Made by a program: the position numbers and the translations under genes. A model generated the notes under the pieces. That model worked only from the letters and a program-made list of their open reading frames with translations. It had not been told where the DNA came from and ran no database searches. A DNA stretch of 62,549 nt, the filler included, from Squatina squatina (Eukaryota): the NCBI GenBank assembly GCA_031763465.1. It is 3 parts of 3 records of this genome, joined end to end, with 100 filler letters (N's around TTAATTAATTAA, not from the genome) between each part and the next. Parts side by side here need not be neighbours in the genome. Positions count along the whole stretch, not along the records: positions 17,302 to 45,198 come from JARFOE010000176.1; 2 more parts are not named here. One strand, given 5' to 3'. The stretch's first letter is position 1. Each line of letters opens with the position of its first letter. Shown in pieces: positions 16,501-62,549 of this stretch.

Positions 16501-17128
16501 GGGGTAGAGCGGAGGAGGAAGAAATGCCTCGGTGAGCTGAAACAAGGCTAACAAGTGAGGATGTGGAGAGACACACTACTGTATCAAGAACTGCAAAGAA
16601 GGGACATTCTTTCATGAACGACACTGACTTTTCATTAGTTCTGAATGAACTATGATAGCAATTAAACAACTACTTAATTTGTTGGTTTCAATATCATGCT
16701 TGTAAAGCATCAGTACTGCAAGGCTTTGGTACTTAACATTTATAATGCATTATTGCTAATATTGCACAGTTTCATCTTGCTTGTATTTCGAAACTCCCGA
16801 ACATGTTTAGTCAGTAGATTTCCAGTGAAACTAATTGAGTACCTCTGCCGACTGTAATTGATATGCCATTCACATGGATGAGAATTTTAATTACATTTTT
16901 GGGGGGAAAGAGAAAGTTGTTGACTCTCTCTCCTAGACATGATTCATGCTGTCAGCCCTTTCTGTTTACATTACTGTTTTAATTAAGTAATTGCCTTGGG
17001 CAGTATTTTGCCAGCTTTCCTCTGACTGTTTCCTTAATACAGTAGTACAAACTGGTTGTACTGCTGGGATGCAATCACTCTGTAATGTTCCTGCCTCATT
17101 TACGATATTTCCCATTTTGCAATTCCAG

Positions 17129-17201
17129 GATATCCGACATCAAGCCAGTGACTTCCCTTGTAAAGTAGCCAAGCTTCCAGAAAATAGAAATCGGAACAGA
17201 T
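17129..17201 (+). CDS. PTPN1: Tyrosine-protein phosphatase non-receptor type 1, exon 2 (3' end lost in gap)
   Basis: Acceptor ttttgcaattccag, then [24 protein letters not shown] vs human PTP1B [24 protein letters not shown]; closer to PTPN1 than to PTPN2. Confidence 0.85.
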
Positions 17202-17301
17202 NNNNNNNNNNNNNNNNNNNNNNNNNNNNNNNNNNNNNNNNNNNNTTAATTAATTAANNNNNNNNNNNNNNNNNNNNNNNNNNNNNNNNNNNNNNNNNNN
17301 N
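17202..17301. other. Artificial scaffold linker
   Basis: 44 N + TTAATTAATTAA (17246-17257; stops in all six frames) + 44 N = 100 nt. Confidence 0.95.
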
Positions 17302-17397
17302 CTCTCCTCTTGGTATATCCCAGGGTATGCAGGGTTCGTGGCCGTTTGCACATGGAATGTTTGCTTCCGCACTTTGACCGTTTTCCCTTGGTTTCAG

Positions 17398-17543
17398 TTA
17401 CACTCACTGTGAGACAGTCTGGGACTTCTTTCCAAGGATTTTTTATACAAGCACGAAATGCTGCTGACCTGAATGGTGGGCCCGCTGGGACCTTTACTCT
17501 TATTGATAAAAACTCCCAGCTCCTGACATGTGGAGATGTAGAA
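17398..17543 (+). CDS. FRRS1: Ferric-chelate reductase 1, reeler-domain exon
   Basis: ag|...|gtgagt; VTLTVRQSGTSFQGFFIQARNAADLNGGPAGTFTLIDKNSQLLTCGDVE vs human FKGFLLEARNAEDLNGPPIGSFTLIDSEVSQLLTCEDIQ. Confidence 0.9.
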
Positions 17544-17970
17544 GTGAGTACCTGCTTGTGAATTCCAAATATGTTACAGAAATTCTTCAAACATCAGTTT
17601 AGTATTTTGTGCTGCTGGTCAGATAAACTGCAAATATTTTTTAAAATTCATGAAAAAGGTACTGGGATTTGTCAGGGTGGTGGTGGGGGGGAGGGGGAGC
17701 AAGTGACTGGAAGTGATGGTGGGAATTTAGCTTTTTCTAGCTGCATAAGGCCCAAAGACCTTCCTGATCAATGTCTATTCTGTGACCTTGTAAGTCTTTT
17801 ATTTTTTTCCATGTAGTCAATCACACATTGTAATTTTATAGACTGTATGAACATTAAAGAGCCAGTCTACACAGCCAAGTAAAAGAACGAAAGTGTTTCG
17901 ATGTACTGAACATATTTATTGTATGGCACCAACTTGTGTTGAACATTGTGCTCTTGTCTCTCTTCTGTAG

Positions 17971-18053
17971 GACTCCACAGTCAGCCACACAAGTCCATCG
18001 GGAAAACACACAATCAAGGTGCTGTGGAACCCACCCGTAACAGCACCAGACCA
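17971..18053 (+). CDS. FRRS1: FRRS1 next reeler exon (truncated by gap)
   Basis: ctctcttctgtag| DSTVSHTSPSGKHTIKVLWNPPVTAPD vs human GSAVSHRSASKKTEIKVYWNAPSSAPN; phase 0 fits the previous exon. Confidence 0.85.
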
Positions 18054-19152
18054 NNNNNNNNNNNNNNNNNNNNNNNNNNNNNNNNNNNNNNNNNNNNNNN
18101 NNNNNNNNNNNNNNNNNNNNNNNNNNNNNNNNNNNNNNNNNNNNNNNNNNNNNATCCATTTGAAAAGAGGTCCTTCAACCAAAATAGGTTGAGAACCATT
18201 GAAACACTCCTGAGTGGTATGCAGTGACCCCTACTGGAATGTTTGTGTGTGTGCGAGACTGAGTTGGACCTCGGTGGGCCCATGCTGAAATAACCTGTTG
18301 ATAGGCACTGTCCAGGCTTAGCCATGCGGAATGATGATTTGACTGAGGTACAGGGAGTCAGCACCGCCCTGGAGCTGTGCCCAGTATGAGTTAAGGGGAA
18401 ACAGAACAATGGGCTGCAGGGTAAAGTTTTGCACATTGAACATTTTTAGATGCAGTTTGTGAAGTTTCTGATGTAAACATAAATCTGATCCAAATGTGAA
18501 ACGGGGCAGACAAGTCCTGGGACTTCTCATGCTTCACCAAAGAGCAGTAATAGATTCAAATAAAAACAGAAAATGCTGGAAACACTTAGCAGGTCAGGCA
18601 GCATCTATGGTAATAAACTCAGATTTATCTAGTGGAATGTAACTGAAGACAGGCAGCTTGATGAAAGTACTCAACCTTTGATCTCATTCAATCTGTCTGC
18701 TTGTCCTCACTTATAATATTTTCTACTCGTGTATATATATACACATTCTCATCCTATTATTGTATGACACAGTCCAGTATTTTTTTCTGAATTTAAAATA
18801 AACATTCCTGCCAGTCCGTCTAACTCTTCATTCTCAAAATCCTAACTATCTGGTAAGAATACTTCAAGTTAGAAAACTTACTTAGAACATACAGTATAAA
18901 AGCACTTTATATTCCTGAAGAAATCAGTGGTTTGAACTTTACTGCCATCCAATTGTAAAGATAACATGTCCTCATGTAATAATTCAATGATGGGGAGCTT
19001 TTTTACATTTGCTAATATGCCTGTACATTGTCATTTGAAATTCCCATCCAAGTGATCAGGTTACTCGAATTAAATTTGGAAGGTAGTACTGTGGAAACGA
19101 ATAAGGTTTGTAGGATGCATTGTCAGTTCATTAACCTCTATACTCTCCTCAG

Positions 19153-19250
19153 TATGCTGGTGCCCATCCATACTTTGGCTGTATTATTCTTACACTGGTA
19201 ATTCTTCAACCGATTATGGCCATCTTCAGACCCGATCCACAAGCACCCAG
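19153..19250 (+). CDS. FRRS1: FRRS1 cytochrome b561-domain exon
   Basis: ag|YAGAHPYFGCIILTLVILQPIMAIFRPDPQAPR|gtaag vs human HAGYHPYLGCIVMTLAVLQPLLAVFRPPLHDPR. Confidence 0.9.
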
Positions 19251-19452
19251 GTAAGTCTAAAATATTAATTTTAAGGACACATTTTCCTGCTGTTTTCTGT
19301 GACAGTCTTTGGTGATTAGAAAGCAACCCAAAGCAATGCCAAAATATCTTAAAAGATATGCCAAAGACAAAGGAAAAGTACGCCCTTAAAAATAAGTGCG
19401 AGCCTCAGCCTAACTTTTATAACCTGTTTGTTTTATTATTTATCTTCTCCAG

Positions 19453-19511
19453 ACGGTATATTTTTAACTGGGTGCATTGGGGTACAGGCACTTCTGCTAG
19501 AATAATAGCAG
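19453..19511 (+). CDS. FRRS1: FRRS1 cytochrome b561-domain exon
   Basis: ag|RYIFNWVHWGTGTSARIIA|gtaag vs human RQMFNWTHWSMGTAARIIA; phase compatible with the previous exon. Confidence 0.9.
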
Positions 19512-19696
19512 GTAAGTTTAAAACAAATGTTTTTCATTGAATTGTTAAAGGAAAAAATGTTTGTAAACTGTAATATAAGTTTTAGGTGCATTGTCTNNNN
19601 NNNNNNNNNNNNNNNNNNNNNNNNNNNNNNNNNNNNNNNNNNNNNNNNNNNNNNNNNNNNNNNNNNNNNNNNNNNNNNNNNNNNNNNNNNNNNNNN

Positions 19697-21822
19697 AGTG
19701 GGAAAGGATATTGCTGCTCGAAGAACTTCCTTCTCTCCTCAATCTCTGGAATCATACTTTCATCACACGTTCCCTTTATCTTTCCTTGCTGCACAAGGTC
19801 CTCCTCCCGTTGGCGCTCAAGTACAATCTCACGCTGCATCTGCATCTCAGCAAATTGATTATTTTTAACTTTTGGCGAAGAGGAAGGAACAGGCTGCAAA
19901 ATAAGTGGCCGAGTTTTGATCTCTACATATTCTTCAGAGCAAGCAAATTTTATAATGCCTCTGGCCTTTCTTAGACTTTCCTCCCGTTTCACACCTAGAC
20001 GGATCTCTCTTTCTATAGGAGTTTCTGTTTTTTCATACGTCACAGGCATAGAGCTTGAAGTTTCATTTTGAAATACGGTGTCAGTTAAATTATCACCTTC
20101 AGATCTACAAGTTGAGTCATCTAGACCAGAATCACTGCCTTCCGAGCAAAGACTATGATCTGTTACATTCAGGAACAAATTCTGGTCTAAATCCCCCATT
20201 CTGCCATTATCCTCTTGTGACGCTTGTATACCCTGCTTTTTAGTTAGATTTGCTGAACTTCTCCAGTATTCCACTTCATCAATTTTGATTCCTGCTGCTG
20301 TGCTGTTTTGCACTGTATCTTCGGAGAATGTTAAAGATGCAGAATGTGGATAGCTTGCCTCCCTTTTTACCAGTTTAGTAACGGAGGGGTCATCTTTTTT
20401 CTCTTTAATAATACATTTTGCCACTGCTTTATTTTTCTCCTGCTTGACTGGTGGCCTATGACTGTGGGTTCTGTTGATCTCTTCCAGCATCAACCACTGT
20501 TTGCGGGCAGCGGCAAAATCCACGTGGTCTGTGTCCACATGTTCACTCCCTGATGCTTCAGTCTTGTTTTCTTCTCCTTGGATTGGTTTAGCAGACTGAG
20601 GCTTAGTATTCCTGGACTTACTTTTCACTTCATCTTTCTGGTTAGGGTTATCTTTTAGTGATCTCTGCTGCAGTTCCATTATTTCTAACACAAGTTTCTG
20701 ACTTAGAGAAGCCAAACTTTCAGCTGCCCCATTTTCCTGAACTAAGTCACGATCACGATGATTTGTGTTTGAACGTTTCTTGATGAGTTTGAATTCATCT
20801 GTGGGAGCAGATTCTAATTCATCTGCATTTTGCATTGGAACAGTGATAGACAAAGATCCGTTCTGAATGGTAGATGGAATGGTTTCTGACACTTTTTGAT
20901 ACATCATACTTTTGTTTGATGTTTGATTACCGTTTCTGGCTAAGTAAGGTTTTGGTTCTCCATTCAGACTAATGGCCGACAGACTGGTCAAGCCTTTATC
21001 ATCCTGTGAGTTGGCTGGAAGCGTTGAACTATCTATGATCAATTTACTTAAATCGATCATTGAGAAATTTTCAACATTTTCTTCATTTTGACCAAATTTT
21101 GAAGAGGTTTTTAGTATTCCTTCTTTTAGCTTGATTACTGATGTATTTGGCGTTGAATTTTTTCTTGACCTAGTGAGTGCAGGAGCAGCCGTTTCTTTTC
21201 CAACTTCATTTGTAGCTTGTAAGGTCGCCACCATTTCTTCCTGGTTGACCTCGGCTACAACTGCTCCAGTTCCAAACACTGAAAGAGGTTTGCTGGCAAT
21301 GTCCTGGCCTGCTACCTCTAAGTTAGCAGCTGCCTCGCCAAGTACTGTACCTGAAGAATCTTTGAAGTGCTCTTTGTGAATAATGGCATAAATCGCTTCT
21401 GGCATTTCATAGGATGAAGGCACGGCTTCATACTCCAAAGGTACTTGCACTGCGTGATCTAAATCTTCCGTTTTGAAAACCTTACCTTGAAGTTCCTGTT
21501 TTATGTCATCTGTATTGTCATTATGATTTCCATCAGTGGTTCCTTTTACATTTTCTGCTGTTAATCTGCAAGTATTCAAGATTTGCTTTAGGTCCTTTAA
21601 CCCAGGGTATTTTCGTTCAGCCGTCACATTAACCTTCCTTTGGTGAATAGTGACATCTTCTGTTTCCATTGTAATAGCTTTGGGCACATATACACTTTCA
21701 GATCTTGAAATGTCCTCACTGGTTTCCATAGTTACAGTTGGTGAACAAGTATCTCCCACGTCAACAACATTTTCTTTCAGTTCCTCTCCATTTTTTGGCA
21801 CCTTGGCCAGAAAGCCACTTTG
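19697..21822 (-). CDS. Giant exon (>700 codons, 3' end in gap) of a MISP/AKAP2-family protein
   Basis: Acceptor tttgtctttgcag ending at 21823; stop-free frame; motifs VDFAAARKQWLMLEE, DSGLDD, ETPIEREIRLGVKREESLRKARG, VEIKTRPL, MQREIVLERQREED shared with MISP/AKAP2; first in-exon ATG at 21729. Confidence 0.85.
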
Positions 21823-21929
21823 CTGCAAAGACAAATATACACATAAATTACTAAAATGTTTGCAAGTTAGTTTGATCATACTTTCAAGAATCAACACGAT
21901 ACATTCATTGCACAAACTGTATAGAAATT

Positions 21930-22165
21930 TCCACCTTTCGGATCAGATATTAAACCGAGGCCCCGTCTACCCTCTCAAGTGGGCGTAAAAGGTCCCAGGG
22001 CCACTATTTCGAAAATGAGCAGGGGGGAGTTCTCCCTGGTGTCCTGGCCAATAGTTATCCCTCACACAACAAAACAAAAACAGATTGTCTGATCATTATC
22101 ACATTGCTGTTTGTGGGAGCTTGCTGTGCGCAAATTGGCTGCCGCGTTTCCCACATTACAACAGT
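21930..22165 (+). mobile_element. Deu-domain SINE (SacSINE1/AmnSINE1-like)
   Basis: TTTCGGATCAGATATTAAACCGAGGCCCCGTCTACCCTCTCAAGTGG..GTAAAAGGTCCC..CACTATTT matches the recalled DeuSINE core. Confidence 0.75.
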
Positions 22166-22392
22166 NNNNNNNNNNNNNNNNNNNNNNNNNNNNNNNNNNN
22201 NNNNNNNNNNNNNNNNNNNNNNNNNNNNNNNNNNNNNNNNNNNNNNNNNNNNNNNNNNNNNNNNNCCAAACAGTTATGCGTAGAGGATACTTGGCACACA
22301 TTCTGCACAAGTCAGATATATTATTAATCCCTTAGTAACAGCAAGAAAAAGTCAGGGTTAAGCTTCAGCCTCAAGGATAACTGATTAAATAG

Positions 22393-23016
22393 TCACATAA
22401 TAGAACAGCAAATGCATTTTTGTTTGTCATTTGTACCTGACACAGAGGGGTCATCAAAGTTTCCAACTCCATCCATATGTCCATCAGAGTAATTTTTGTA
22501 GGGAGAATGATTTATAGTTGTATCTTGACCTGAAATTAAAACAGATTTCTTTGGGAGAGAGCTATCTCCTGCAGTTAGATTTATTGTGGCATATGATGTT
22601 TTATGTATCTCATCCCTAGTTGAAAGAGGGACTGGATGAAATACTGGGGTAGTGTGGCTATTTGCTTGATGTGGTGACACCTCATCATCGTCGTCATCGC
22701 TGATCATAACCAGTTCTGCTCGGATAGCTCCTTCGTACCCCAAAACTTTTTTGGTTTCATTTTCGTCATCGACACTGTGGTATCCCATGAAGACCATAGT
22801 AACTGTTTCCTCAGTGTTAGTCGTAGAAGGCAAGGAACGGACAACGTTAAACTTAACGTCTGTTTCTTCAGAAGCAGAGGAACATCTGCCATCGTGCTCA
22901 AGCTCCGAATTGATAAACACAGCCTCGCGGTGGCTGTCCCTTTGTTGGTGGCACGGAATCTGTACTGAATTCAGCTTATTTTCAGTTAATGGTGACTCAT
23001 TACTTTGTTGACTCTG
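22393..23016 (-). CDS. PALMD: Palmdelphin large exon, 3' part, read through to a CaaX-ending stop
   Basis: DVKFNVVRSLP..ETVTMVFMGY..GYEGAIRAELVMISDD..DDPSVS matches human PALMD DVRYNIVHSLP..PVTMIFMGY..GYDGIIHAELVVIDD..EDPSLT; internal GT donor after 22437; read-through ends KQKCICCSIM*; 5' boundary approximate. Confidence 0.88.
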   Translation of the reverse strand, partial: QSQQSNESPLTENKLNSVQIPCHQQRDSHREAVFINSELEHDGRCSSASEETDVKFNVVRSLPSTTNTEETVTMVFMGYHSVDDENETKKVLGYEGAIRAELVMISDDDDDEVSPHQANSHTTPVFHPVPLSTRDEIHKTSYATINLTAGDSSLPKKSVLISGQDTTINHSPYKNYSDGHMDGVGNFDDPSVSGTNDKQKCICCSIM

Positions 23017-24769
23017 GCTTTGTGTGGAGCTCGGAGCCCATGATTTCCAGGATGGAAATGATGGCCAAGTCCATGAGAGACCTTGTGGACCCAGCTGTGG
23101 TGCTTCGAGTGATGGGTGATGTTGCAGCTTCCATTGCAGCGCAGGCAGAAGTGACCCAAAGTCTGAGTTGTTGCAGTGGAAGCGCAGACTGCTGGCCGCC
23201 GTGGCTGGGCTAACGAGTGTGGGAGGGGGCTTGCAGGGTCTCACAGCGCTCCAGCAATCTGTCCCACAACAGGAATGCCGAGGCGCCACCCCGGGGGAGC
23301 GGCAGTGGGTCAGTGGAGCACGACCCTGCTGTCCTCTCTCAGGGTGACTGCGTTCGTCCTCCCACCCCTGCCACCCCACCAGCGCCCTTGCTGTTGGCCT
23401 GTGAGCCAGCCAGCCCAGACTGCTGCCGCCCATGCCGAGATGGTGCAGTCTACAGCCGGGTCTTCTGGGCCCAGAGCTGCTCGAGGTTGTGCTCCAAGGC
23501 CATCTGCAGTCTCCCCCACTGTCAATGAACAGCTTCCACCAGCCCTGCTGCAGACACTGGGGTAACAATTTGTAGGAGCACTAGAGTGGGAAAAGGAACA
23601 CAAAAGTGATGGTGAGTGACAGAGGGAAGGTGAAATGTGGGACTGTTGGTGAAAGGGGAATTGGGGCCGAGGTTATGGGCTGTCTGAGCTGTAGCCTCCC
23701 CTCCTCTTACTCTTCTCGGCCTTCCTCCTTCTCCTTGTGTTCCTGCTCCTCGACTTCTCACCTGAAAGGTGGTGGCATGGGCTGTTCCCTCATGAAAGCA
23801 AGATTGTGCAGCAGGCCACCACAAATCTTGATACCTTTCCAACTGAGAACTGCAGGGCTCCTCTACAGCGTGCCAATGGTCTGCTCCATCACATTTCTGG
23901 TGGCAGCAAGGCTCTCATTGTGTGCACGCTGCACCCCCGTGTACGTGGGTTGCGCACCGGAGTCATGAGCCATGCCGTCAGCTGATAGCCCTTGTCACCC
24001 AGTAGCCACCCTTTGGTTTGCCGTGATGGCTGAAATACAGCTGGCACAGTGGACTGTCGCACACTAAAGGCATCATGACTGAATCATAGAATCATAGAAT
24101 GGTTACAGCACAGAAGGAGGCCATTCGGGCCATCAAGCCCATGCCGGCTCTCTGCAAGAGCACTTCAGCTAGTCCCAATCCCCGGGCCCTTCCCCGTAAC
24201 CCTGCAAATTTTTTTCATAGAAACATAGACTGCTGCCAGCACACTGTGCATTGGCCTGCTTGAATCACTGCTTCTGGTCACATGCCAGCTGGATCTTGAG
24301 GGAGTGGATTCCCTTTCGATTGTATGGCAGTGTTACAGGGCCCACAAACTGATGTGCATGCAGTCAAGGGCAGCCTGCACCATGGGCAATCGTGCAATTC
24401 TAGCAACACCATGTGCTTGCTCCACCAGCTGGTCTCTGATAAGAGAAAATGAAATGTATTTCGTTCTCTTGGAATGGAGAGCCTCAGTGACGTCCATTGC
24501 TCAACAGTGGGCAGCAAACTGCGAGATGTTGCAAATATTCCAGCCTGGAAGGAGCCAGATGCATAAAAGTTGATCACCACGGTCACCTTCACAGTCACTG
24601 ACAATGTGATCTCGCCCTGCTCTGAGGTTACAGTTATGATGGCAGCAGGTGGCAGATTGAGTGAGGAGGTCCTTAGTGAAGCGCAGACGTCTCACACATT
24701 GTTCCTCACTGAGGTTCAGGTAGGAGAATTGCTCACTGACTACCCTGGGCAGATGGCTTCCAGCTGAGA
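23017..24769 (-). mobile_element. Degenerate autonomous-type Harbinger transposon (transposase on -, probable Myb/SANT partner remnant on +)
   Basis: RRLRFTK, VKVTVVINFYASGSFQ, ARLPMVQAALDCMHI, YNRKGIHSLKIQLACD, HDAFSVRQS, GWLLGDKGYQLTAWLMTPVRNP; several frameshifts. Confidence 0.85.
24082..24227 (-). mobile_element. CR1-type 3' tail nested in the Harbinger transposase
   Basis: (ATCATAGA)n tail; GACTG duplicated at 24077-24081 and 24228-24232; splits the GSS-HD transposase motif. Confidence 0.75.
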
Positions 24770-24869
24770 NNNNNNNNNNNNNNNNNNNNNNNNNNNNNNN
24801 NNNNNNNNNNNNNNNNNNNNNNNNNNNNNNNNNNNNNNNNNNNNNNNNNNNNNNNNNNNNNNNNNNNNN

Positions 24870-25263
24870 ATTACGGGGTTATGCCTCACAATTCCTTCAC
24901 TTTTAGTCATATTTTCTTGAATCATTGGTTTAGAACCTGTCTGCTCAGTGAGTAACATTTTAGGAGAGTGGGGGTTATTATAGGAAATTGAATAAACAGG
25001 TGCATGACATGCTGCAGAAACATTGGCTTGATTTTCACCAGCCTGCTGCAACAATGCCTCCACCTCTTCATGAGTCATGTCATCTACGCCATTCTGCACC
25101 AGCCCTCCATCATTGCGCAAAGCATACACTGATTTGACCCCATCTTCATAGACTTTAACACCTTTGTTTTTTATTTCATCAACCGTCACTGGCACAGTTG
25201 AGAGAACGGTGCTTTCTCCAGTCTTCATGTCCTTTTGAACATTGATTTCCACAGCAAACAAAG
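24870..25263 (-). CDS. PALMD: Palmdelphin large exon, 5' part (runs into gap)
   Basis: ttaacag| LFAVEINVQKDMKTGESTVLSTVP..GVKVYEDGVKSVYAL..EEVEALLQQA vs human LYAMEIKVEKDLKTGESTVLSSIP..GIKVYDDGQKSVYAV. Confidence 0.92.
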
Positions 25264-26434
25264 CTGTTAAGAAAACATGTACATAGATTAGTAAAAACGA
25301 TTTACTTATTTACCATTGGGATAAAACTTTTGGGATTATGAAAGAGCTATTAATGTGATTTACCAATAATCCAAAATGATCACCCATTGTCTTGCAAAGA
25401 AATATGTGTATTCTCTTTGCTGTCAAGTTTGGTTACTGACTCCTCCCATTTCCCAACTCCCCACCATGACTGATCAGCCAGCGAATGCAGATAACACAAA
25501 CACATTAACGTTCTGCCATAAGTCTGGCAGGGAAAGTGATCATATTCTCTGTAACTACACCAACAGGGAATGGACACCACTGGAATGGCCAGTCATTAAA
25601 ATAATAGTAATGATGGTTTAGCCACAGATATATTAGCTTGCTTGACACCCACAAAACAGGAGTCTTGTACTAGAATGCCTCAGTGCAAACTTTGGCCCCA
25701 AATGTTCTCAAAACCAACAGAACTCCTTAGGTGGCAGTCCAGCTAGTGGGGGCAGAAAGTGAAGCAGGACTTGGTATTCCTGGGACGCCTTCCCAAAGAC
25801 AAGGTCATTCATGTTTTTGTGTTGGGGTAGAAGCAGGCAGAACATCTGTCTGGCCCCCAGAGGCCTGACAATCAACCAGGAGGCAAGGCCTGTGGGATAG
25901 CATAATCCACTGGATTTCCAACTGCTCCCATTCACTAAGCACTGATCACACCGAACAATAGCAAGATATCCCATTCCAGCACCATGGAGCAGCGGACGTA
26001 GGGCGCACAATGGTTTCCAGGCAGGCTTGTTATAATAACCTGAAAGATCGTAGAAGATCGACTCCTGCAAAATTTAAATTGGCCTTCTGCTAAAGAAGGG
26101 GGCAGATTCCACTGGCAATAATACCTTTTAAGAAGATCCTGGTGGCTTCTGCTAAAAGTGAATTACCAGCATCGCATTTGGTGCTCCCCCTCCAGCTGGT
26201 ACACAAGATGCACCACAACTGGCACATGTGGCCGCCGGATTAATTTACATGCACCCCACTCTGCCCTGACCGCAGATACTCTGGTGGGGTCACCTTCTCA
26301 GTACACTGGCGGATTGTGGTTCCCACACCGCCACCACAGTTAAGGTGGAGTGGATTGGAGATTTGCTGGGCTTTTGCCTCTTTGTGAATATCTATCAGGG
26401 GGTTGTATTGGGACTGGTCAACTCAAAAAGCATT

Positions 26435-27066
26435 TGGGGCCCCAATTCGGCTGCGCCCAAATGGATTGCAGCATTTGGGGCCCCATAGTTGGGGCCGGTG
26501 ACGCGGCCTTCATGACACAGTCATCATTCTGGCCCACTGTAGCGTGGCAATGCTAAATCAGCATTGTCACAGCGCTGACCCGGCCAACGCCACATCACTG
26601 CCGGGTTACGCCAGCAACGCAAGCCATGCTGCCAGTGCAACTGCGCATGCGCAAGCCACGGCCCCGCCCCCGCCCTGCCTTAAAGGCAAGGGCCGCTGGT
26701 TTGCGGATTGGTCAGGGATCCAGGGCCCACTGGACCACCAGGGACTGAGAAAATCGCTGAAACATGTGCTGGCACAACAGAGAGCATGCCGGCAAGGGGA
26801 CCCAGACTTTTTCCTGGGGCGATCGGTTGCCAAACATTGGCCGACAAGATAGTCGGCCGATGTTNNNNNNNNNNNNNNNNNNNNNNNNNNNNNNNNNNNN
26901 NNNNNNNNNNNNNNNNNNNNNNNNNNNNNNNNNNNNNNNNNNNNNNNNNNNNNNNNNNNNNNNNACTGGTGAGCTGCCTCTGTGGCTACAATTGCCACCC
27001 ACAGCTCACTGGCGGACCTCATGAGGCGCGTGCCCCATTCTGGTGCGATCCAATTTCTTGGCCCCA
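26435..27066. mobile_element. GC-rich MITE-like element (spans a gap)
   Basis: Ends GGGGCCCAATT.. / ..AATTTCTTGGCCCC; internal CCTTAAAGG motif as in the 568-1284 element; a similar block lies at 39535-40025. Confidence 0.5.
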
Positions 27067-27706
27067 ATATTGAAGTTGAACAACTGACATTAAAAACATT
27101 GTAAAACAGAAAACTGTCCTGGGTGCATAGAGGTCCTATGATGTTGATCCCACCAGAGTATATGTTGACAGAGGAAAGGTGCTCAATTTAAATGTGCTGT
27201 GCAGACACCCACACCACTGGGGCCACATCTCAGGTGCTCGCCTTCTCTCAGAGGCCACATATTGTGGTGACTGATGCCAGTTCACAGGGGAGAAAAGTTA
27301 CGAGGAACCTGTGGAAAGGAGATATACATGCATTTTTACTGTCCCAAGGCTATATTGGCCCAAGAATATGTGCATTGTACAAATAGGAAACTATAAACAG
27401 AAAAGTAGTTTGTTGAATGAGCCCAATATATACTTCTTGCACATGTGGGTAATTTCAACCTAACTCACCTGGCGAGAAACCCGTGGGATCGGGTAGAGCA
27501 CTGTTTTTCCCATCCAGACAAACATTACTTTCCATTGACTTCAATAGTAAAAGAAGTTTCCTGGTGGGCAATTTAGGTTAAAAGAGCCTACCATTAACTC
27601 AATTGTGCTTTCACTTAGAATGTCCAGCTTATCTGGAGCCAACTGTTAATATTCCGCAATAGTATTTCTGTTTTAGTAACGTATGCCCGTACATCCTTGG
27701 GTTTAC

Positions 27707-27837
27707 CTGAGAATATTTTGTTCCAGTTGCTTAGATTGATGCTGATCTTCCTGGTGCTGCTTTTTCATTGCCTCTTGTTCTTGAGGATATATGGTGGCCA
27801 CTCCCTCCAGGAGCCATCTTTCTCTCAAACTCTTTGA
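27707..27837 (-). CDS. PALMD: Palmdelphin exon 3
   Basis: ag|SKSLRERWLLEGVATIYPQEQEAMKKQHQEDQHQSKQLEQNILR|gtaaac vs human KKALREKWLLDG..EQEEMKKQNQQDQHQIQVLEQSILR. Confidence 0.92.
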
Positions 27838-28623
27838 CTGTTCAGAACAGCACAATGTTAGAATCTGTATTTCATTAACACTGCCTATTTTCATCACGTT
27901 CTTTTTCATTTAGCAAGTCTTAATAAACTTCCTGCTTCATTTTGGGATTGAGTTTAACAACAATGATTTATTTTCTTGGCTGGTCCAGAGGGTGAGGGCA
28001 CTTTGTAAACCTGTCGAACCCGGGTTTCAATCCACCTCAGAACACTGGGTTTAAAATCTCCTCTAATGGCTGCAAATATTATAGAAACATAGAAAATAGG
28101 TGCAGGAGTAGGCCATTTGGCCCTTCGGGCCTGCTCTGCCATTCAATANNNNNNNNNNNNNNNNNNNNNNNNNNNNNNNNNNNNNNNNNNNNNNNNNNNN
28201 NNNNNNNNNNNNNNNNNNNNNNNNNNNNNNNNNNNNNNNNNNNNNNNNAAATAAACAGCACACTGGAGTCACGGCACTCTGCGCAGGTTCTGGCCTCATA
28301 TGACAACTGACACTTTTAAGATCAATGCAGGGGCACGCGCCTCTGCTACACTGTCTTGTAGATTTCATTTCCTCATTTTCAACTTCGATTATTTCTTTAA
28401 GCAATAAAAAATATACAGTAATACCAGCATCTAGGGTGAAAGCAAATTTGGAGGATGCTATGGCTACAAGCAGCAGGACTGCTGAAGGAGAGACTTCAAC
28501 TGACTCCTGTCTGCAAGGGAGACTTAACTAAAGTTGAAAGTCCTTGAAGCCTGTGACCTGAAAGTGTCCTTCACACACAAACACACACACACACAGCTGG
28601 GATTGCAAATTCAGAGGACTTAC

Positions 28624-28668
28624 CGTGATGGCTTGTAGCCTTTCTTTCAGCAGATGAGTCTCTTCCAT
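28624..28668 (-). CDS. PALMD: Palmdelphin coding exon 1
   Basis: MEETHLLKERLQAIT|gtaagt vs human MEEAELVKGRLQAIT. Confidence 0.92.
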
Positions 28669-29799
28669 CCTAAGAATCAAAACAGAAAAAAAGAGCAGAA
28701 GTAGAAGGGTGAAGAGTACGAACCGGAGAGGGAGAAGCGAGTGCTGGCGTGTGCTGCAGCTGGGGTGGAGAGTATTCCTGGCTTGTCAGGGCGGCTCCCA
28801 GCAGATGATGGCACTGGCCTGACTCAGGCAGGCACATGTGATGAAGGGGTGCAGGCACGGATTGCTGGCATGGCTGTCACGTTTGAGTGACAGACCATAT
28901 GTTCTCCTTGGCCCAGAATTATTTTGGTTGGATTGTTTCAGGAGGTGAGGCAACGTTCAAACATCCTGCGTAAACATGACAAGACTCTTTTTGCAAACTA
29001 AAGCGGTTAGGAATGTCGTATAAACGTATAGGACAGACGTGCTACGGAGGAACTTTATGTAGTGCCATCATGATATGATTAATATGTCAGATTCATAAAG
29101 GGCGATTTTAATTTTAGATGCACAATGAAAGGGGTGGCGGATAATCGGAGGCTGAAATGCACGCGCCGTCTGCCCTTTGTCACCATACGAGCCTGGAGTC
29201 ATTTGAAGCCAGGGTCTCATTTGAATGCTGCTGGTGAGCTGCTGATGTCAAACATGGCACCCCGAGGCAGCATGTCGGCTGGGGTGGTCAAGAAATCAAC
29301 CGGCTCCTATGTGTGTCAAGAGGGCTTCGCACGAGCCAGCAGTGGACCAAAGTTTTAAAAGTTTTTAAAAAGTGCAGCAAACTTGACTTGCTACCAGTAG
29401 CCCCTATAAGGACCCCTGGTTAGGTGGTTGAACGTCAGTAGCTTGGCCATCTCTTCATTTTCTTTAGCTTGCTCCAATTAGAGCTTTTCTTGTGTTTTTT
29501 TTAAAATCCTGTTTCTCTCCCAGAGGTACTGGCTCATTCTTGTAAGCAGTTCCACAGATGTTAGAAACCCACCAGAACTTTGCTCAAGTGGGGATTCATC
29601 ATGTGTGAGCCAAAATAGGGAGTGTTGGCGGGCTGTTTAACCGTAAGGGGCATCACAAATGAGCCAGATTTTGCCCTCACCTTCCAGCAGGGGAACAGAA
29701 ACCCCAGTTAATCCCCCAAAGTATCCGGAGACCAACTATACTGTCCCAACTTCTACTCCAGCTAAGATAAACTAATTTTGAACGAAGCAGAGATATTGT

Positions 29800-30205
29800 G
29801 GGTGAAATTGGTCAAAACAGGTCGCTAGCGAATCGTCGGCTCGCTTTACGCTGCACTCTATTTTCTTTTTTAAGACTTCAACGGGCTGTCGATCTGCTAT
29901 CAGCCCCTCGATGCAATGCTGGCATTGACCAATTCCGCCCCCAATTGAACCAGAGACCTTTCTTGCCCATGTGGCTCAGTACCACACAGGTGGTGCATTG
30001 ACTGACATAAACCATTGGAGTCAGAAACGCAATCTTTTGTGTGACATTTTTTTTAAACTTGGTGTAGAAATGGCTTGTTTCTCTGCAAAATAAAAATTGG
30101 ATAAAAAAAATAGTAATTATCAAAATTAAAATTTCCAGAATTTAAAGCCAGTAAAGAAATTAATCACAATTGCTCTTTTTAGTCCATGTTTTAGTCAATT
30201 CACCC
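29800..30205. mobile_element. MITE with short TIRs
   Basis: GGGTGAAATTGGTCAAAA at left end, TTTTAGTCAATTCACCC at right end. Confidence 0.6.
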
Positions 30206-38435: not shown

Positions 38436-38493
38436 AGAAACATACACAGCTGCGAATGCGGCAAGCGTAGCGTGCTGAGATGGAAAAGATTTT
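38436..38493 (-). CDS. PLPPR4: Phospholipid phosphatase-related 4, internal exon
   Basis: ttgcag|(R)KSFPSQHATLAAFAAVYVS|gtaagt; phase fits the previous exon. Confidence 0.92.
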
Positions 38494-40136
38494 CTGCAAA
38501 GGAAAACAAAACAATTTAATTATGCTGTTGATATTTCAGACACTTATCAGGGAATCATTGGAGTGCAGAATAATTTCAATCCAAGAGACAAGAATAATTA
38601 ATTCTGTAGCTGCTCTGCATTCATTACAAGGACATATATTGGGATGCCCATAGTGAATCCCATGGTAGGGGCTCATGACAGAAGGGAGGGAAAAAAAGAT
38701 TTTCCTGCCTAAAACTGCTGAATGGCAGCTTGCAGAATCGTTTCTTAGCAGCACATCTGAGAAAAGATGCTTCTAATCACTTGTCAAAGCTGATGTTTCA
38801 GATAAAATGTACGGGCATTCAAAGTCTGTGAATTCAAAATTCAGTCCTTTGCCTTGAGTCTCGAGTTTGAGATGAGTGTTGAGATGAAAGTCTGCTGTCT
38901 CCGCCAGATGCCAGGATCCTAAATAAAAAGACCCACTCGATTTGGTGATTAACAAAGTTTTACTTTTCAATTTATAATCAATTGGCTGCTAGGTAGCCGT
39001 TTAATTTTTGACAGACACTTTCTTTGACCTAAAATGCCCCCAATATGGACCTCAACTGGGTACCAAATGTGTTCCTTCAACGGTTGCCAAAATCATCAAC
39101 AGTTTATTCTGACAACATCCTGGGGAGACAGTTCAACAGAAGATGGAATGGCTGAGACTGAGGTGTTTAATTATATAGCCTTAACAGCTGCATTGAGTCG
39201 ACACAAGAAAAGGGCTCGCCCTTCAATTCCCATCTAAAAGTAATTGTACTGCCACTGACATTTAATAGGTGCAATCACATTGACAAGGGCCTGAAATTGA
39301 TACGATTTAAAAGGGCCAGTTACCCCTTTCCCAGTGGCATCTCCAACAAAATGAAAGCACAAAAGCTAATTTTCAGGGAAAGCAAAATGTAAGGGCAGGT
39401 GCAGACGTGGTGACACGGAACTTCTGAAGCTCCAAAGTGTCATGTGGATCTCTGATATACAACCACAAATAAAATAAGACTGAGAATTCACTTTTCCAAT
39501 TATTCTTATCCAGAAATGTCAAGTTAAGACATTAGGGGTCGGGGCGGGGCAATTGGACACGCCCAAGCTGGGCACTGCATTCAGGGCCCCCTCGCCACAG
39601 GGGCACCATGCTGGCAGCACGTGTCGTTGACCCAGAATTGGTGACTTAGTCACCATTCCAGGTCAGCGCAACGTGGTAACGCAAGAAGTATTGCCACGAC
39701 GCTGATCCAGCCAATGCAGTGACACTGCCGGGTTGCGTTGGCAGCGGCGCTGGTGCCATACTGCCGGGGCCAGCGTGCATGCTTCAGCTGTGGCCCTGTC
39801 CCCTGCCTTAAAGAGGAGGGCCGCAGGTTGATGCAAGGGAGGCTAGCCCCGCTAACCAGAGTGCCTGGTTCAGGCGGCGAGAAATGCCAGCATGCCAGAG
39901 AACGTGCCGGCAAATGTGGCTAGTGGCAACACGGGCCGACTAGCCACCAGACATCGGCCAACAATGAAATCGATGCAAAAACATGGCGGCCGGCAGCACT
40001 GTCCTCGCGCCTTGAACCCAGCAGGNNNNNNNNNNNNNNNNNNNNNNNNNNNNNNNNNNNNNNNNNNNNNNNNNNNNNNNNNNNNNNNNNNNNNNNNNNN
40101 NNNNNNNNNNNNNNNNNNNNNNNNNTAAAGTCTAAC

Positions 40137-40332
40137 CTGCCAGCGTTAATGATAGAAGGATCAGATCCTGTGCAGATATCCTCCACAACATATGGATTTT
40201 CTTCACAGGAGGTATTTAATGACGTATAATTGGGCTTACACACTGTAAGAAAATATGGGGCATGGTACCCAGTTGACAGCTGAATAATGTCAGTGATGAG
40301 AGCGGTGGCACAAAGGCCAAACACATGAACTC
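40137..40332 (-). CDS. PLPPR4: PLPPR4 internal exon
   Basis: ag|[66 protein letters not shown]|gttag. Confidence 0.95.
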
Positions 40333-41347
40333 CTAAAACACTCAAGAGAAATCAAAAATAATTAGCATGACAGTTTTTATCTCCAGCTGCTAGTTCAGAA
40401 TCATAGGCTTTTTGTCCCAAATAGTGACAGATTAATGCCAAAAATATCAATGCTGCTAGAAAATACATGTACCATTAAGGAACATAATTAGCCCAATCAG
40501 TATACCAGAGAGAATTTGAGAGTTTTGGAACTGATGATGAACTGTGTAAAGTAGAACATACAGTTTCCACCAATATATTTTAACTGAATAATTTATTGCA
40601 TTAACACTTCCAGCAAATAGATTAATAATAAGCCCATGATTCTTATTATTAAAAGTTGGAATTGTAGTACTACATATAAACTCGACTAAAAAACTGGAAT
40701 TGTATTACACATAAAAGGTTTTACTTTTATTTATTTACATCTTAATCTACATATGCTACATTGGCATTCAGATATTTTTCCCTTTTAGTGCTGGTTCAAA
40801 TAATGGCTAAGGGACAGAAGCATGAGGATGTAAGCTAAATAGTTCTATGTAATATAATATATTCCGAGTGACCATTTAGGGTTAACCCTAACCCTAACTC
40901 TAATAGGGGAAGAGAACACAATTTCCACACCGTAAATATATTGTAAATACCTTTACATTACATAGGATAAACGGCACAGAAACTGGCCATTCGGCCCAAC
41001 CAGTCCATGCTGGCATTNNNNNNNNNNNNNNNNNNNNNNNNNNNNNNNNNNNNNNNNNNNNNNNNNNNNNNNNNNNNNNNNNNNNNNNNNNNNNNNNNNN
41101 NNNNNNNNNNNNNNNNNATACCAATTAGCCTTTAAAAAGTTCATGCGTGAAATCTCAGTCTCATGCGCAACGAAATTATAGGTCACACCTTCAGAATAAC
41201 AAGGAATTATGTATGATCTCAAAGACTTTAACTGACTTGATCAGCGGATACATATGGGAGGGCTTTGGAAAGGTCTCTAAAATCGATCATACATTAAATA
41301 TCATGTTTTAAACGTAAGATGCATTCATAATATCATAAAGTACAAAC

Positions 41348-60860: not shown

Positions 60861-61215
60861 TTCAGGTTTTGTTTTTACCAGGAGGATTGCCAGACTCCTG
60901 CAAATTAGCATCCAATGAAAACCTGGAATTGAGAGCCTGGGTATCTTACTCTTTTAATGCCTAGTGAATGCAATCTCGTAGAACACACAAGTTAGGAGTG
61001 GAAGAGTACAAACTAAATTTATTTGAATATTAAAGCAACTTATCCAGTCTGGATTTTTTTCAAAAATTGTGAATTAACTGAATCAAAAAAATAGCCAGTC
61101 CTACAACCTTTTGTTCATCACATTAAAAAAACTCTATAAGCTTCAGTATTGTGTTAGTTTATGTCGTTCAAAGCAGTTTGTTAATGTAGGTTAATTTCTA
61201 AAACTCTATCTTTAC

Positions 61216-61545
61216 CTTTTACATCCAAATATATTTTGCTCTCCAGTTTTCCAGCTGGAAAAATATGAAATATGCACGAATACCAGCCTCTGTCTGATTT
61301 GAGAGCTTCTTTGATTGTGATTGTGGAATGTTGTCCCTTGACTTCCATTGTTATTCGCTGGTTGTGTAGAAATGTTTTGTTCGCGGATGCACTGTACACA
61401 GCCAGTTTAGTTTTGTTACTGGATTTCTCCCATTCAACTGATACCATTTTGACACCTTTATCAGAAAGACCACAGTGTAAGGCAACTGAACCACCCTCCA
61501 CAACGGTTACATTCCCATTAGTTTTAAGTTCTGTTGTTTGGACAT
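61216..61545 (-). CDS. IgV exon of a PVR/nectin-family immunoreceptor, TIGIT-like
   Basis: 330-nt phase-1/phase-1 exon (ttctacctag|...|gtaaag): ELKTNGNVTVVEGGSVALHCGLS..VEWEK..LAVY..DRGWYSCIFHIFPAGKLESKIYLDVK vs human TIGIT TIETTGNISAEKGGSIILQCHLS..VNWEQ..LAIC..DTGEYFCIYHTYPDGTYTGRIFLEVL. Confidence 0.85.
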
Positions 61546-62549
61546 CTAGGTAGAAAAGAAAGAGAATTAAGATGTTATAAATTCACTTTGTAATAGCTTT
61601 TATAATAATATCCAGATACAATACTACAAATACAGCAAGTACTAAAGTCACAGAAAGACTCACATTTAAATAGAACACCTTTCACATCATCAGGATGTCC
61701 CACAGTGCTTCACAGCCAGCGAAGTACATTTGAAGTGCTGTTGTTTTGTAAGGCCGTGAATTTCCTCAGGGCTGCTCCAGCTCTGTTGTAGCAACATCGC
61801 TGTAAACCCTGTTTATTTGTGTAACTTCAGTTTCTGTCGTACTTCCAGCGAAGATATTACAGTGGAGCAAAAGCAGCTCCGAGGAAATTCTTGGCTTAGG
61901 TAATTTCAGCAGCCAATTTCCACAGAGAAAGTGCCACAAATAGTAATGAGATAAAAATCTGCATTTGTGGTTTTGGCTGTGCAATGAATGTTGGCTAGGG
62001 TACCAGGAGAATTTACTGCTTTTTTGAAAAACTACCACTGGATTTTTCACATCAACCTGAAGAGCCTGCTGTGAGCCCTTCTCCTCCTCTTCCTCCTCCC
62101 TCTTCTAGTGACTTGTCCTGCTCTGTTCATTCTCCAAGTCATGTTGTATTCCAAGGGGAATGCCTACTGCTGTACCCATGGTAGTTGACAATGGGCACTA
62201 ACGAGCTTGGTTTTTCAATGCAACTGTCTAGGCACAAAGAAAATCCACTTGAGATTTAGCGGCTGGTCAGCACCCATGGAACTGTAACGCAGCATGCGCC
62301 AGTGGCCAGGATGGTGCCCTCCAGAGCTGACCCTGCTGGAATTTGCATGGTCCGTAAGTGGGTATCTCACTAGCAGGGGGCAACAACCACAAGTGCCACT
62401 TTGGGCGCATCTCTGGTACCCACCCACCCCATGTTGCCATGGGGGGCGGGGTTTGATCAAGAGGACCAATCTAACTCAATTGCCAACAATATTTTTCTTT
62501 CAATGCATCAGTAGTCCAAAGCACTTTCCTGGCCTGGGCCCCACTGGTG

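Follow-up and report, generated by a model that had tools for sequence, protein, structure and literature searches.

The PALMD-FRRS1 interval of Squatina squatina

The window, by which we mean the whole 62,549-nucleotide stretch of Squatina squatina DNA that was analysed, is scaffolded from short contigs and contains 43 N gaps, of which 34 measure 100 N. An earlier note on this DNA had reported a stop-free exon of more than 2.1 kb between PALMD and FRRS1, on the PALMD strand, and the exon proved to be real. A stop-free minus-strand frame runs from 21942 to the gap at 19697; because an acceptor AG, with a pyrimidine run upstream of it, ends at 21823, the exon is placed at 21822-19697, where it starts in phase 0 and has 708 codons. 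At 748 codons the frame is the longest open frame of the contig that holds the exon, and the corresponding value over 300 single-base shuffles averaged 106 codons and never exceeded 224. All of the motifs quoted in the earlier note were located in the exon. The exon is listed here under the name argued for in the next section, paralemmin downstream gene 4 (PDG4).

17391..17537, plus strand: Reeler-domain exon, convergent neighbour, presumably FRRS1 (Pfam Reeler, E 3e-9)
19153..19512 (about 19153-19250 and 19454-19512), plus strand: two likely FRRS1 cytochrome b561 exons (sequence)
19597..19696, no strand: 100-N gap, probably hiding the PDG4 3' part (repeat 3, NPFFKLRS) and the FRRS1 3' end
21822-19697, minus strand: large coding exon, almost certainly of a PDG4 orthologue (708 codons, phase-0 start, 3' end cut by the gap)
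19839-19798, minus strand: repeat 2, MQREIVLERQREED, the start of the Pfam AKAP2_C match
19926-19903, minus strand: motif VEIKTRPL (sequence scan)
19957..20025, minus strand: repeat 1 (ETPIEREIRL..REESLRKARG), ETPIEREIRL itself at 20025-19996
20133-20101, minus strand: motif DSGLDDSTCRS (sequence scan)
20529-20479, minus strand: family motif DHVDFAAARKQWLMLEE, with HVDF..ARKQW as is typical of the PDG4 clade
21823..21840, minus strand: splice acceptor, pyrimidine run plus AG (sequence, RNA-like contig breakpoints, relatives' isoforms)
21957..22165, no strand: high-copy repeat at the contig end, very high depth in all four runs
22166..22265, no strand: 100-N gap, probably covering PALMD exon H (KKVM end) together with the first exons of PDG4
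22393..23037, minus strand: 3' half of PALMD exon G, with the CaaX form CICCSIM-stop at its end
24870..25266, minus strand: PALMD exon G, 5' half (Pfam Paralemmin, tblastn, relatives' contigs)
27706..27840, minus strand: PALMD exon with the paralemmin motif (exon-D search, tblastn)
28624..28668, minus strand: PALMD first coding exon (tblastn)

The C-terminal half of the protein carries three charged repeats of the form I-E-x-E-I-x5-R-E-E, of which the window shows two and relatives' proteins the third. Pfam AKAP2_C matched residues 635-688 of the window protein with E 2e-4 and 21 bits, which is below the 27-bit cut-off because the gap cuts the domain; the cut-off was passed by five of the seven full-length shark, ray and chimaera orthologues scanned. 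The residues E, S, K and T are abundant in the window protein, its conservation is limited to short motifs, and its N-terminal half diverges fast.

The PALMD exons lie upstream of the large exon on the same strand, as placed by Pfam Paralemmin matches and tblastn. The Reeler-domain exon we take to be FRRS1, following the earlier note; the two pieces at 19153..19512, the first of which has no Pfam match, we likewise assume to be its cytochrome b561 exons. The earlier note had proposed a search for an AKAP2_C-domain exon beyond the gap, and tblastn gave no credible match within the window among the matches listed, either for the PDG4 C-terminal part (about 160-240 aa in relatives) or for any further PDG4 exon, with 20 relatives and 12 first-exon pieces as queries. 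Because of this the PDG4 first exons and C-terminal part are taken to be hidden by gaps. PALMD exon H was likewise not found in the window by tblastn, and no contig of the relatives' runs bridged the gap at 22166. Since the window lacks the majority of FRRS1 exons, several exons of PALMD and both ends of PDG4, the 100-N gaps must stand for much more than 100 bases.

About 1.7 kb of repeat DNA (23038-24769) splits PALMD exon G, and within it lies a degenerate piece of a Harbinger-type transposase (23892-24083, DDE_Tnp_4, E 0.001). In relatives' contigs a stretch of only about 120 nt separates the two halves of exon G, and the window lacks these 40 codons; the interruption reflects either a genuine insertion, in which case PALMD would be disrupted, or a chimeric contig. 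Rfam gave no match in 17000-30000. Elsewhere in the window, a 234-codon minus-strand frame at 1876-2577, which has no Pfam match, resembles the C-terminal portion of ORF2 from a LINE of the RTE type. Upstream of PALMD two minus-strand exons (38440-38495 and 40127-40351, the longer without a Pfam match) presumably belong to a PLPPR (plasticity-related gene), placed as in the human region, and beyond this gene lies an Ig V-set exon (61184-61582, minus strand, E 1e-9).

Orthology and distribution

The family can be aligned in blocks only. The main tree, built from 56 chosen rows and 453 columns with IQ-TREE under LG+G4 (no site mixture) and rooted on lamprey, had four clades, one of which, at 100/99, held the window protein, eight other cartilaginous-fish proteins, 11 ray-finned PDG4 proteins and record P0217. 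This phylogeny of MISP, AKAP2 and MISP3 with the window protein, which the earlier note had proposed, thus groups the protein with ray-finned PDG4. The database names si:ch211-153l6.6 and 'palmdb' (isoforms) of teleosts were equated with PDG4 through the palmdb fusion and the tree rather than through published Ensembl identifiers. AKAP2 and MISP were sister clades at 100/99, which matches JAK2/JAK3 versus JAK1/TYK2, the known pairing of these chromosome regions. A second tree, of 27 rows and the 257 columns present in the window protein, retained the PDG4 clade with that protein at 99/98, and AU tests on these columns rejected the grouping of the shark proteins with MISP (p 0.001), with MISP3 (p 0.006) and with AKAP2 (p 0.027). 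Further, a short N-terminus, MIS(V/F)WL, was found only in PDG4-class records, from sharks, rays, sturgeon, gar and teleosts, and in none of the AKAP2, MISP or MISP3 records compared; it lies outside the tree alignment and is hence independent of it. The exon is almost certainly the main coding exon of the shark PDG4 orthologue, and the earlier note was borne out in its view of a PALMD-linked fourth member of the AKAP2/MISP/MISP3 family.

Raw profile scores ran against the PDG4 grouping: the window fragment scored 173 bits with MISP, 161 with MISP3 and 97 with a PDG4 profile made from ray-finned fishes only. Full-length proteins gave roughly equal scores, 227 (PDG4) against 250 and 211 for sawshark and 252 against 251 and 193 for chimaera. 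We attribute the fragment's low PDG4 score to the lack of repeat 2 in most ray-finned PDG4 proteins and of the C-terminus in the fragment. Assignment by best profile score was dropped as an orthology test, the score being driven by which repeats are present.

Teleost PDG4 (PDG4A and PDG4B) falls in the same clade and has the same neighbour, PALMD, as the shark gene, and has HVDF..ARKQW, SGLDDS..RS, NPFFKLRS and the MIS(V/F)WL start in common with the shark form. Repeat 2, present in cartilaginous fishes and sturgeons, is missing from PDG4 of gar, bowfin and teleosts. Unlike teleost PDG4, the shark gene has no annotated PALMD fusion, and elasmobranch models end without RWEAG. The ALRWEAG end occurs in two of four chimaera records and was unseen in 37 elasmobranch records over their final 75 residues, for which loss of the last exon or incomplete models are both possible; the C-terminal PDG motif with its invariant WE lies outside the window and was scored in relatives' records only. 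MISP (PDG1, C19orf21), the best-studied member and an F-actin bundler (PMC9097542), has the D/N-F-x-A-A-R motif and all three repeats, as shark PDG4 does, but it forms its own clade, sister to AKAP2, lies beside PALM and is a separate gene in sharks. MISP3 (PDG3) has repeats 1-3 and NPFFKLRS in common with shark PDG4, with high raw similarity; it differs in its own clade, its LD(V/I)TWPP motif and its QRWE(S/T)G end, and has a separate chimaera record. AKAP2 (PDG2, PALM2-AKAP2) resembles shark PDG4 in lying behind a paralemmin gene and in DFSAARKQ, DSGLD and Pfam AKAP2_C, and has the ALRWEAG motif in common with the two chimaera PDG4 records, but has the PKA-RII helix, lacks the ETPIE repeat 1, and in sevengill and horn shark is on other contigs and another chromosome than PDG4.

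Linkage was followed in other assemblies, where accession order is a proxy for gene order that carries no strand or orientation. PDG4 and PALMD were on the same longest contig in all nine species where both were seen, and in seven of eight species the PDG4 accession series was 10 or fewer from that of PALMD, the exception being the great white shark, with series 211 apart. The RefSeq accession distances between PDG4 and PALMD were:

catshark, 1
chimaera, 1
sevengill shark, 2
horn shark, 2
whitespotted bamboo shark, 2
brownbanded bamboo shark, 8
zebra shark, 10

From accession order and the shared longest contigs we infer that PALMD and PDG4 are linked in contiguous assemblies. With nine of nine shared contigs and seven of eight near accessions, the linkage was not created by the gaps of the window, which answers the earlier note's caveat that a 100-N gap separates the exon from the PALMD contig. 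The neighbouring paralemmin of relatives ends in the KKVM exon-H form typical of PALMD; the exon-D search gave 11 cartilaginous-fish clusters, most named palmdelphin and three named paralemmin-2(-like) by NCBI. The PALMD ends of sawshark (GKKVMM, P0052) and chimaera (GQRVM, P0062) are of the exon-H form, which therefore predates bony vertebrates; it was not found in teleosts, according to PMC3405040.

With residues 420-708 as query, 19 proteins were matched, among them 14 shark, ray and chimaera clusters at 49-85% identity, the nearest being sawshark (85%) and sevengill shark (81%); the others were two MISP3-like proteins (bichir, gecko) and three from osteoglossomorphs, including a mormyrid paralemmin fusion. 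Among the best 120 of 136 matches to a chimaera C-terminus query, 115 were new, and best score placed 90 of these with PDG4, 24 with AKAP2 and one with MISP3. The PDG4 class among the matches listed took in paddlefish, sturgeon, gar, bowfin and teleosts, and all seven rows listed with tetrapod names were AKAP2. In a profile search the best 150 of 470 matches held 141 new representatives, at least 23 of them PDG4 by best score, and of these 23, 22 nested among ray-finned fishes. The remaining one, P0217, belongs to the PDG4 clade as a third lineage, apart from its shark and ray-finned groups alike, and would fit a lobe-finned fish. Uncharacterised proteins of lungfish and coelacanth grouped with MISP3, and named look-ups gave newt and chimaera MISP3 and MISP-clade proteins from stingray, sawshark, salamander and caecilian. 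The earlier note had the gene kept in this lineage and lost in mammals, but sharks, rays and chimaera have orthologues, and so do sturgeons, gar, bowfin and teleosts; judged from the protein matches listed (150 of 470 for the profile), the loss of PDG4 looks tetrapod-wide rather than mammal-only. Separate loci for the other family members were scored in relatives, which stood in for Squatina squatina: AKAP2 and MISP records are separate in sawshark, catshark and bamboo shark, as are MISP in stingray and MISP3 in chimaera. In the PMC9145010 supplement, the MISP and AKAP2 accessions of catshark and brownbanded bamboo shark are distinct and differ from those of PDG4. A lamprey record, P0278 (Petromyzon marinus), is a PDG-family gene with repeats and an ALRWEAG end (AKAP2_C, E 4e-11).

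Transcripts and alternative readings

Three sequencing runs from three studies, two of them guessed to be RNA and one unlabelled, came from relatives at about 92% identity and were available as contigs only. RNA-like contigs (X12, X15, X16) cover the exon, and their matching ends at 21824-21825, whereas X1, a run of genome size, has a contig that continues to 21956; this hints at splicing at the acceptor. Two RNA-like contigs extend 840 and 1084 nt past the 3' gap (19597..19696). Of more than 900 differences in total, 34 were listed for 19766-20197; among these 34, 19 are silent, 15 replacing and none a stop, giving a pN/pS of 0.22 for this conserved end only. Isoforms of relatives part ways at the acceptor residue (21822), and relatives' models carry several short, conserved first exons of their own that join at this same residue. 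As judged from these isoforms and contigs, short first exons of the gene's own would splice in phase 0 onto 21822 to give a protein of 850-980 aa, and they would point to promoters of its own in the gap behind PALMD.

The exon might instead be MISP3 (PDG3) or MISP (PDG1) that reference-guided scaffolding has placed next to PALMD. The higher raw scores for MISP and MISP3, the bichir and gecko MISP3-like proteins that rank right behind the sharks, and the 43 gaps of the window would all agree with this, but both groupings are rejected by the AU tests, separate MISP3 (chimaera) and MISP (sawshark, stingray) records exist, and the PALMD linkage recurs in other assemblies, so that such a misplacement is highly improbable. 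That the exon is a decaying remnant heading for loss, as in tetrapods, is scarcely credible: a fast-diverging N-terminal half and elasmobranch models without the terminal RWEAG motif are set against 708 intact codons, orthologues intact in 14 clusters, the pN/pS of 0.22, and RNA-like contigs from three studies over the exon.

Another reading is that in sharks the exon serves mainly as a terminal exon of PALMD, in a PALMD-PDG4 read-through like that of teleosts or PALM2-AKAP2. PALMD and the exon are adjacent on the same strand, zebrafish read-through ESTs are reported (PMC3405040), and 22 of 90 ray-finned PDG4 clusters carry the paralemmin motif. Teleost fusions join after DIIK, which is also present in shark PALMD, and given the phase-0 acceptor an in-frame fusion is possible. 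However, among cartilaginous-fish records, which are automated models, none of 41 PDG4 records had the paralemmin motif and none of 37 PALMD records, the longest of 621 aa, had PDG motifs, and conserved first exons of PDG4's own are annotated. The contig joints among those listed lie in repeats and have no bearing on read-through, and rare forms are invisible to contigs. We consider a mainly PALMD-terminal role unlikely; a minor read-through form in sharks is possible, with a donor exon that is absent from the window. It is very unlikely, further, that the shark PDG4 protein works as an A-kinase anchoring protein like AKAP2. Database records are named 'A-kinase anchor protein 2-like', and a pattern for the consensus AKAP helix has matches in the window protein, at residues 157 and 363. 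The same pattern finds the known site in all three AKAP2 proteins scanned, but in the alignment the place of AKAP2's PKA-RII helix (the VQNAIQ region) is taken in the shark protein by charged repeat 2, and the matches at 157 and 363 are not kept in orthologues, with none in skate, gar or paddlefish. According to PMC3405040, the site is conserved only in PDG2. From its sequence, then, shark PDG4 is probably not a PKA anchor. AKAP2 AEMVVQNAIQL aligns with AEMQMQREIVL of repeat 2, with A-E-M-x-x-Q-x-x-I-x-L in common, which suggests, as a lead only, that the AKAP2 helix was derived from repeat 2.

Likely function and family history

MISP is an F-actin binder (KD 0.76 uM) and bundler that acts chiefly by way of its C-terminal half, and it has no defined actin-binding motif (PMC9097542). 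MISP and AKAP2 have a repeated motif in common, and an association of AKAP2 with cortical actin is described (PMC3601349). Because shark PDG4 shares this repeat with MISP and AKAP2, and given the actin data in both papers, we propose by homology that PDG4 would be a scaffold binding F-actin at the cell cortex, as MISP does, a role we favour slightly over its absence. Its composition and the MISP literature make it likely that the protein is mostly disordered. The three charged repeats of the C-terminal half may bind or bundle actin, for which homology tips the balance a little beyond even. A comparison of the family profile with PDB sequences gave no match.

Paralemmin downstream genes PDG1-4 were defined by Hultqvist et al. 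2012 (PMC3405040), who placed PDG4 downstream of teleost PALMD-A and PALMD-B, found it absent beside tetrapod PALMD, and identified three zebrafish ESTs as PALMD-A/PDG4A read-through. Their tetrapod negative is weak, since tetrapod MISP3 was also missed there. No PDG was found in elephant shark or lamprey, which was said to weaken their tree. The earlier note's 'missing fourth copy' was thus right as to a fourth ohnologue but not as to novelty, the gene having been described and named as PDG4; in the open-access literature we found no later papers on PDG4. An origin of PDG4 in the two vertebrate genome duplications follows that paper and fits the four-clade tree. What is added here is PDG4 in cartilaginous fishes, whose version of the gene retains the three repeats of the family, although the gene is already in automated annotations under vague names. 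The presence of PDG4, AKAP2, MISP and MISP3 in cartilaginous fishes, together with a lamprey PDG, means that all four copies predate the split of sharks and bony fishes, and fills the gap that PMC3405040 had left.

We would put forward a fuller history only tentatively, as somewhat less probable than its denial: all four PDG ohnologues would have been kept in cartilaginous fishes, whose PDG4 would be the closest living form to an ancestral three-repeat actin scaffold, also seen in lamprey; the AKAP2 helix would be a remodelled repeat 2; and PDG4 would have survived into a further lineage, probably lobe-finned fishes (P0217), to be lost only towards tetrapods. The significance is one of housekeeping for a single gene family, with no new kind of system. 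The results suggest PDG4 as the proper name for loci called 'uncharacterized', 'AKAP2-like' or 'MISP-like' by NCBI. Misleading names include 'MISP-like' for PDG4 of sturgeon and paddlefish (P0106, P0112, P0114) and 'AKAP2-like' for PDG4 of horn shark and chimaera (P0004, P0014).
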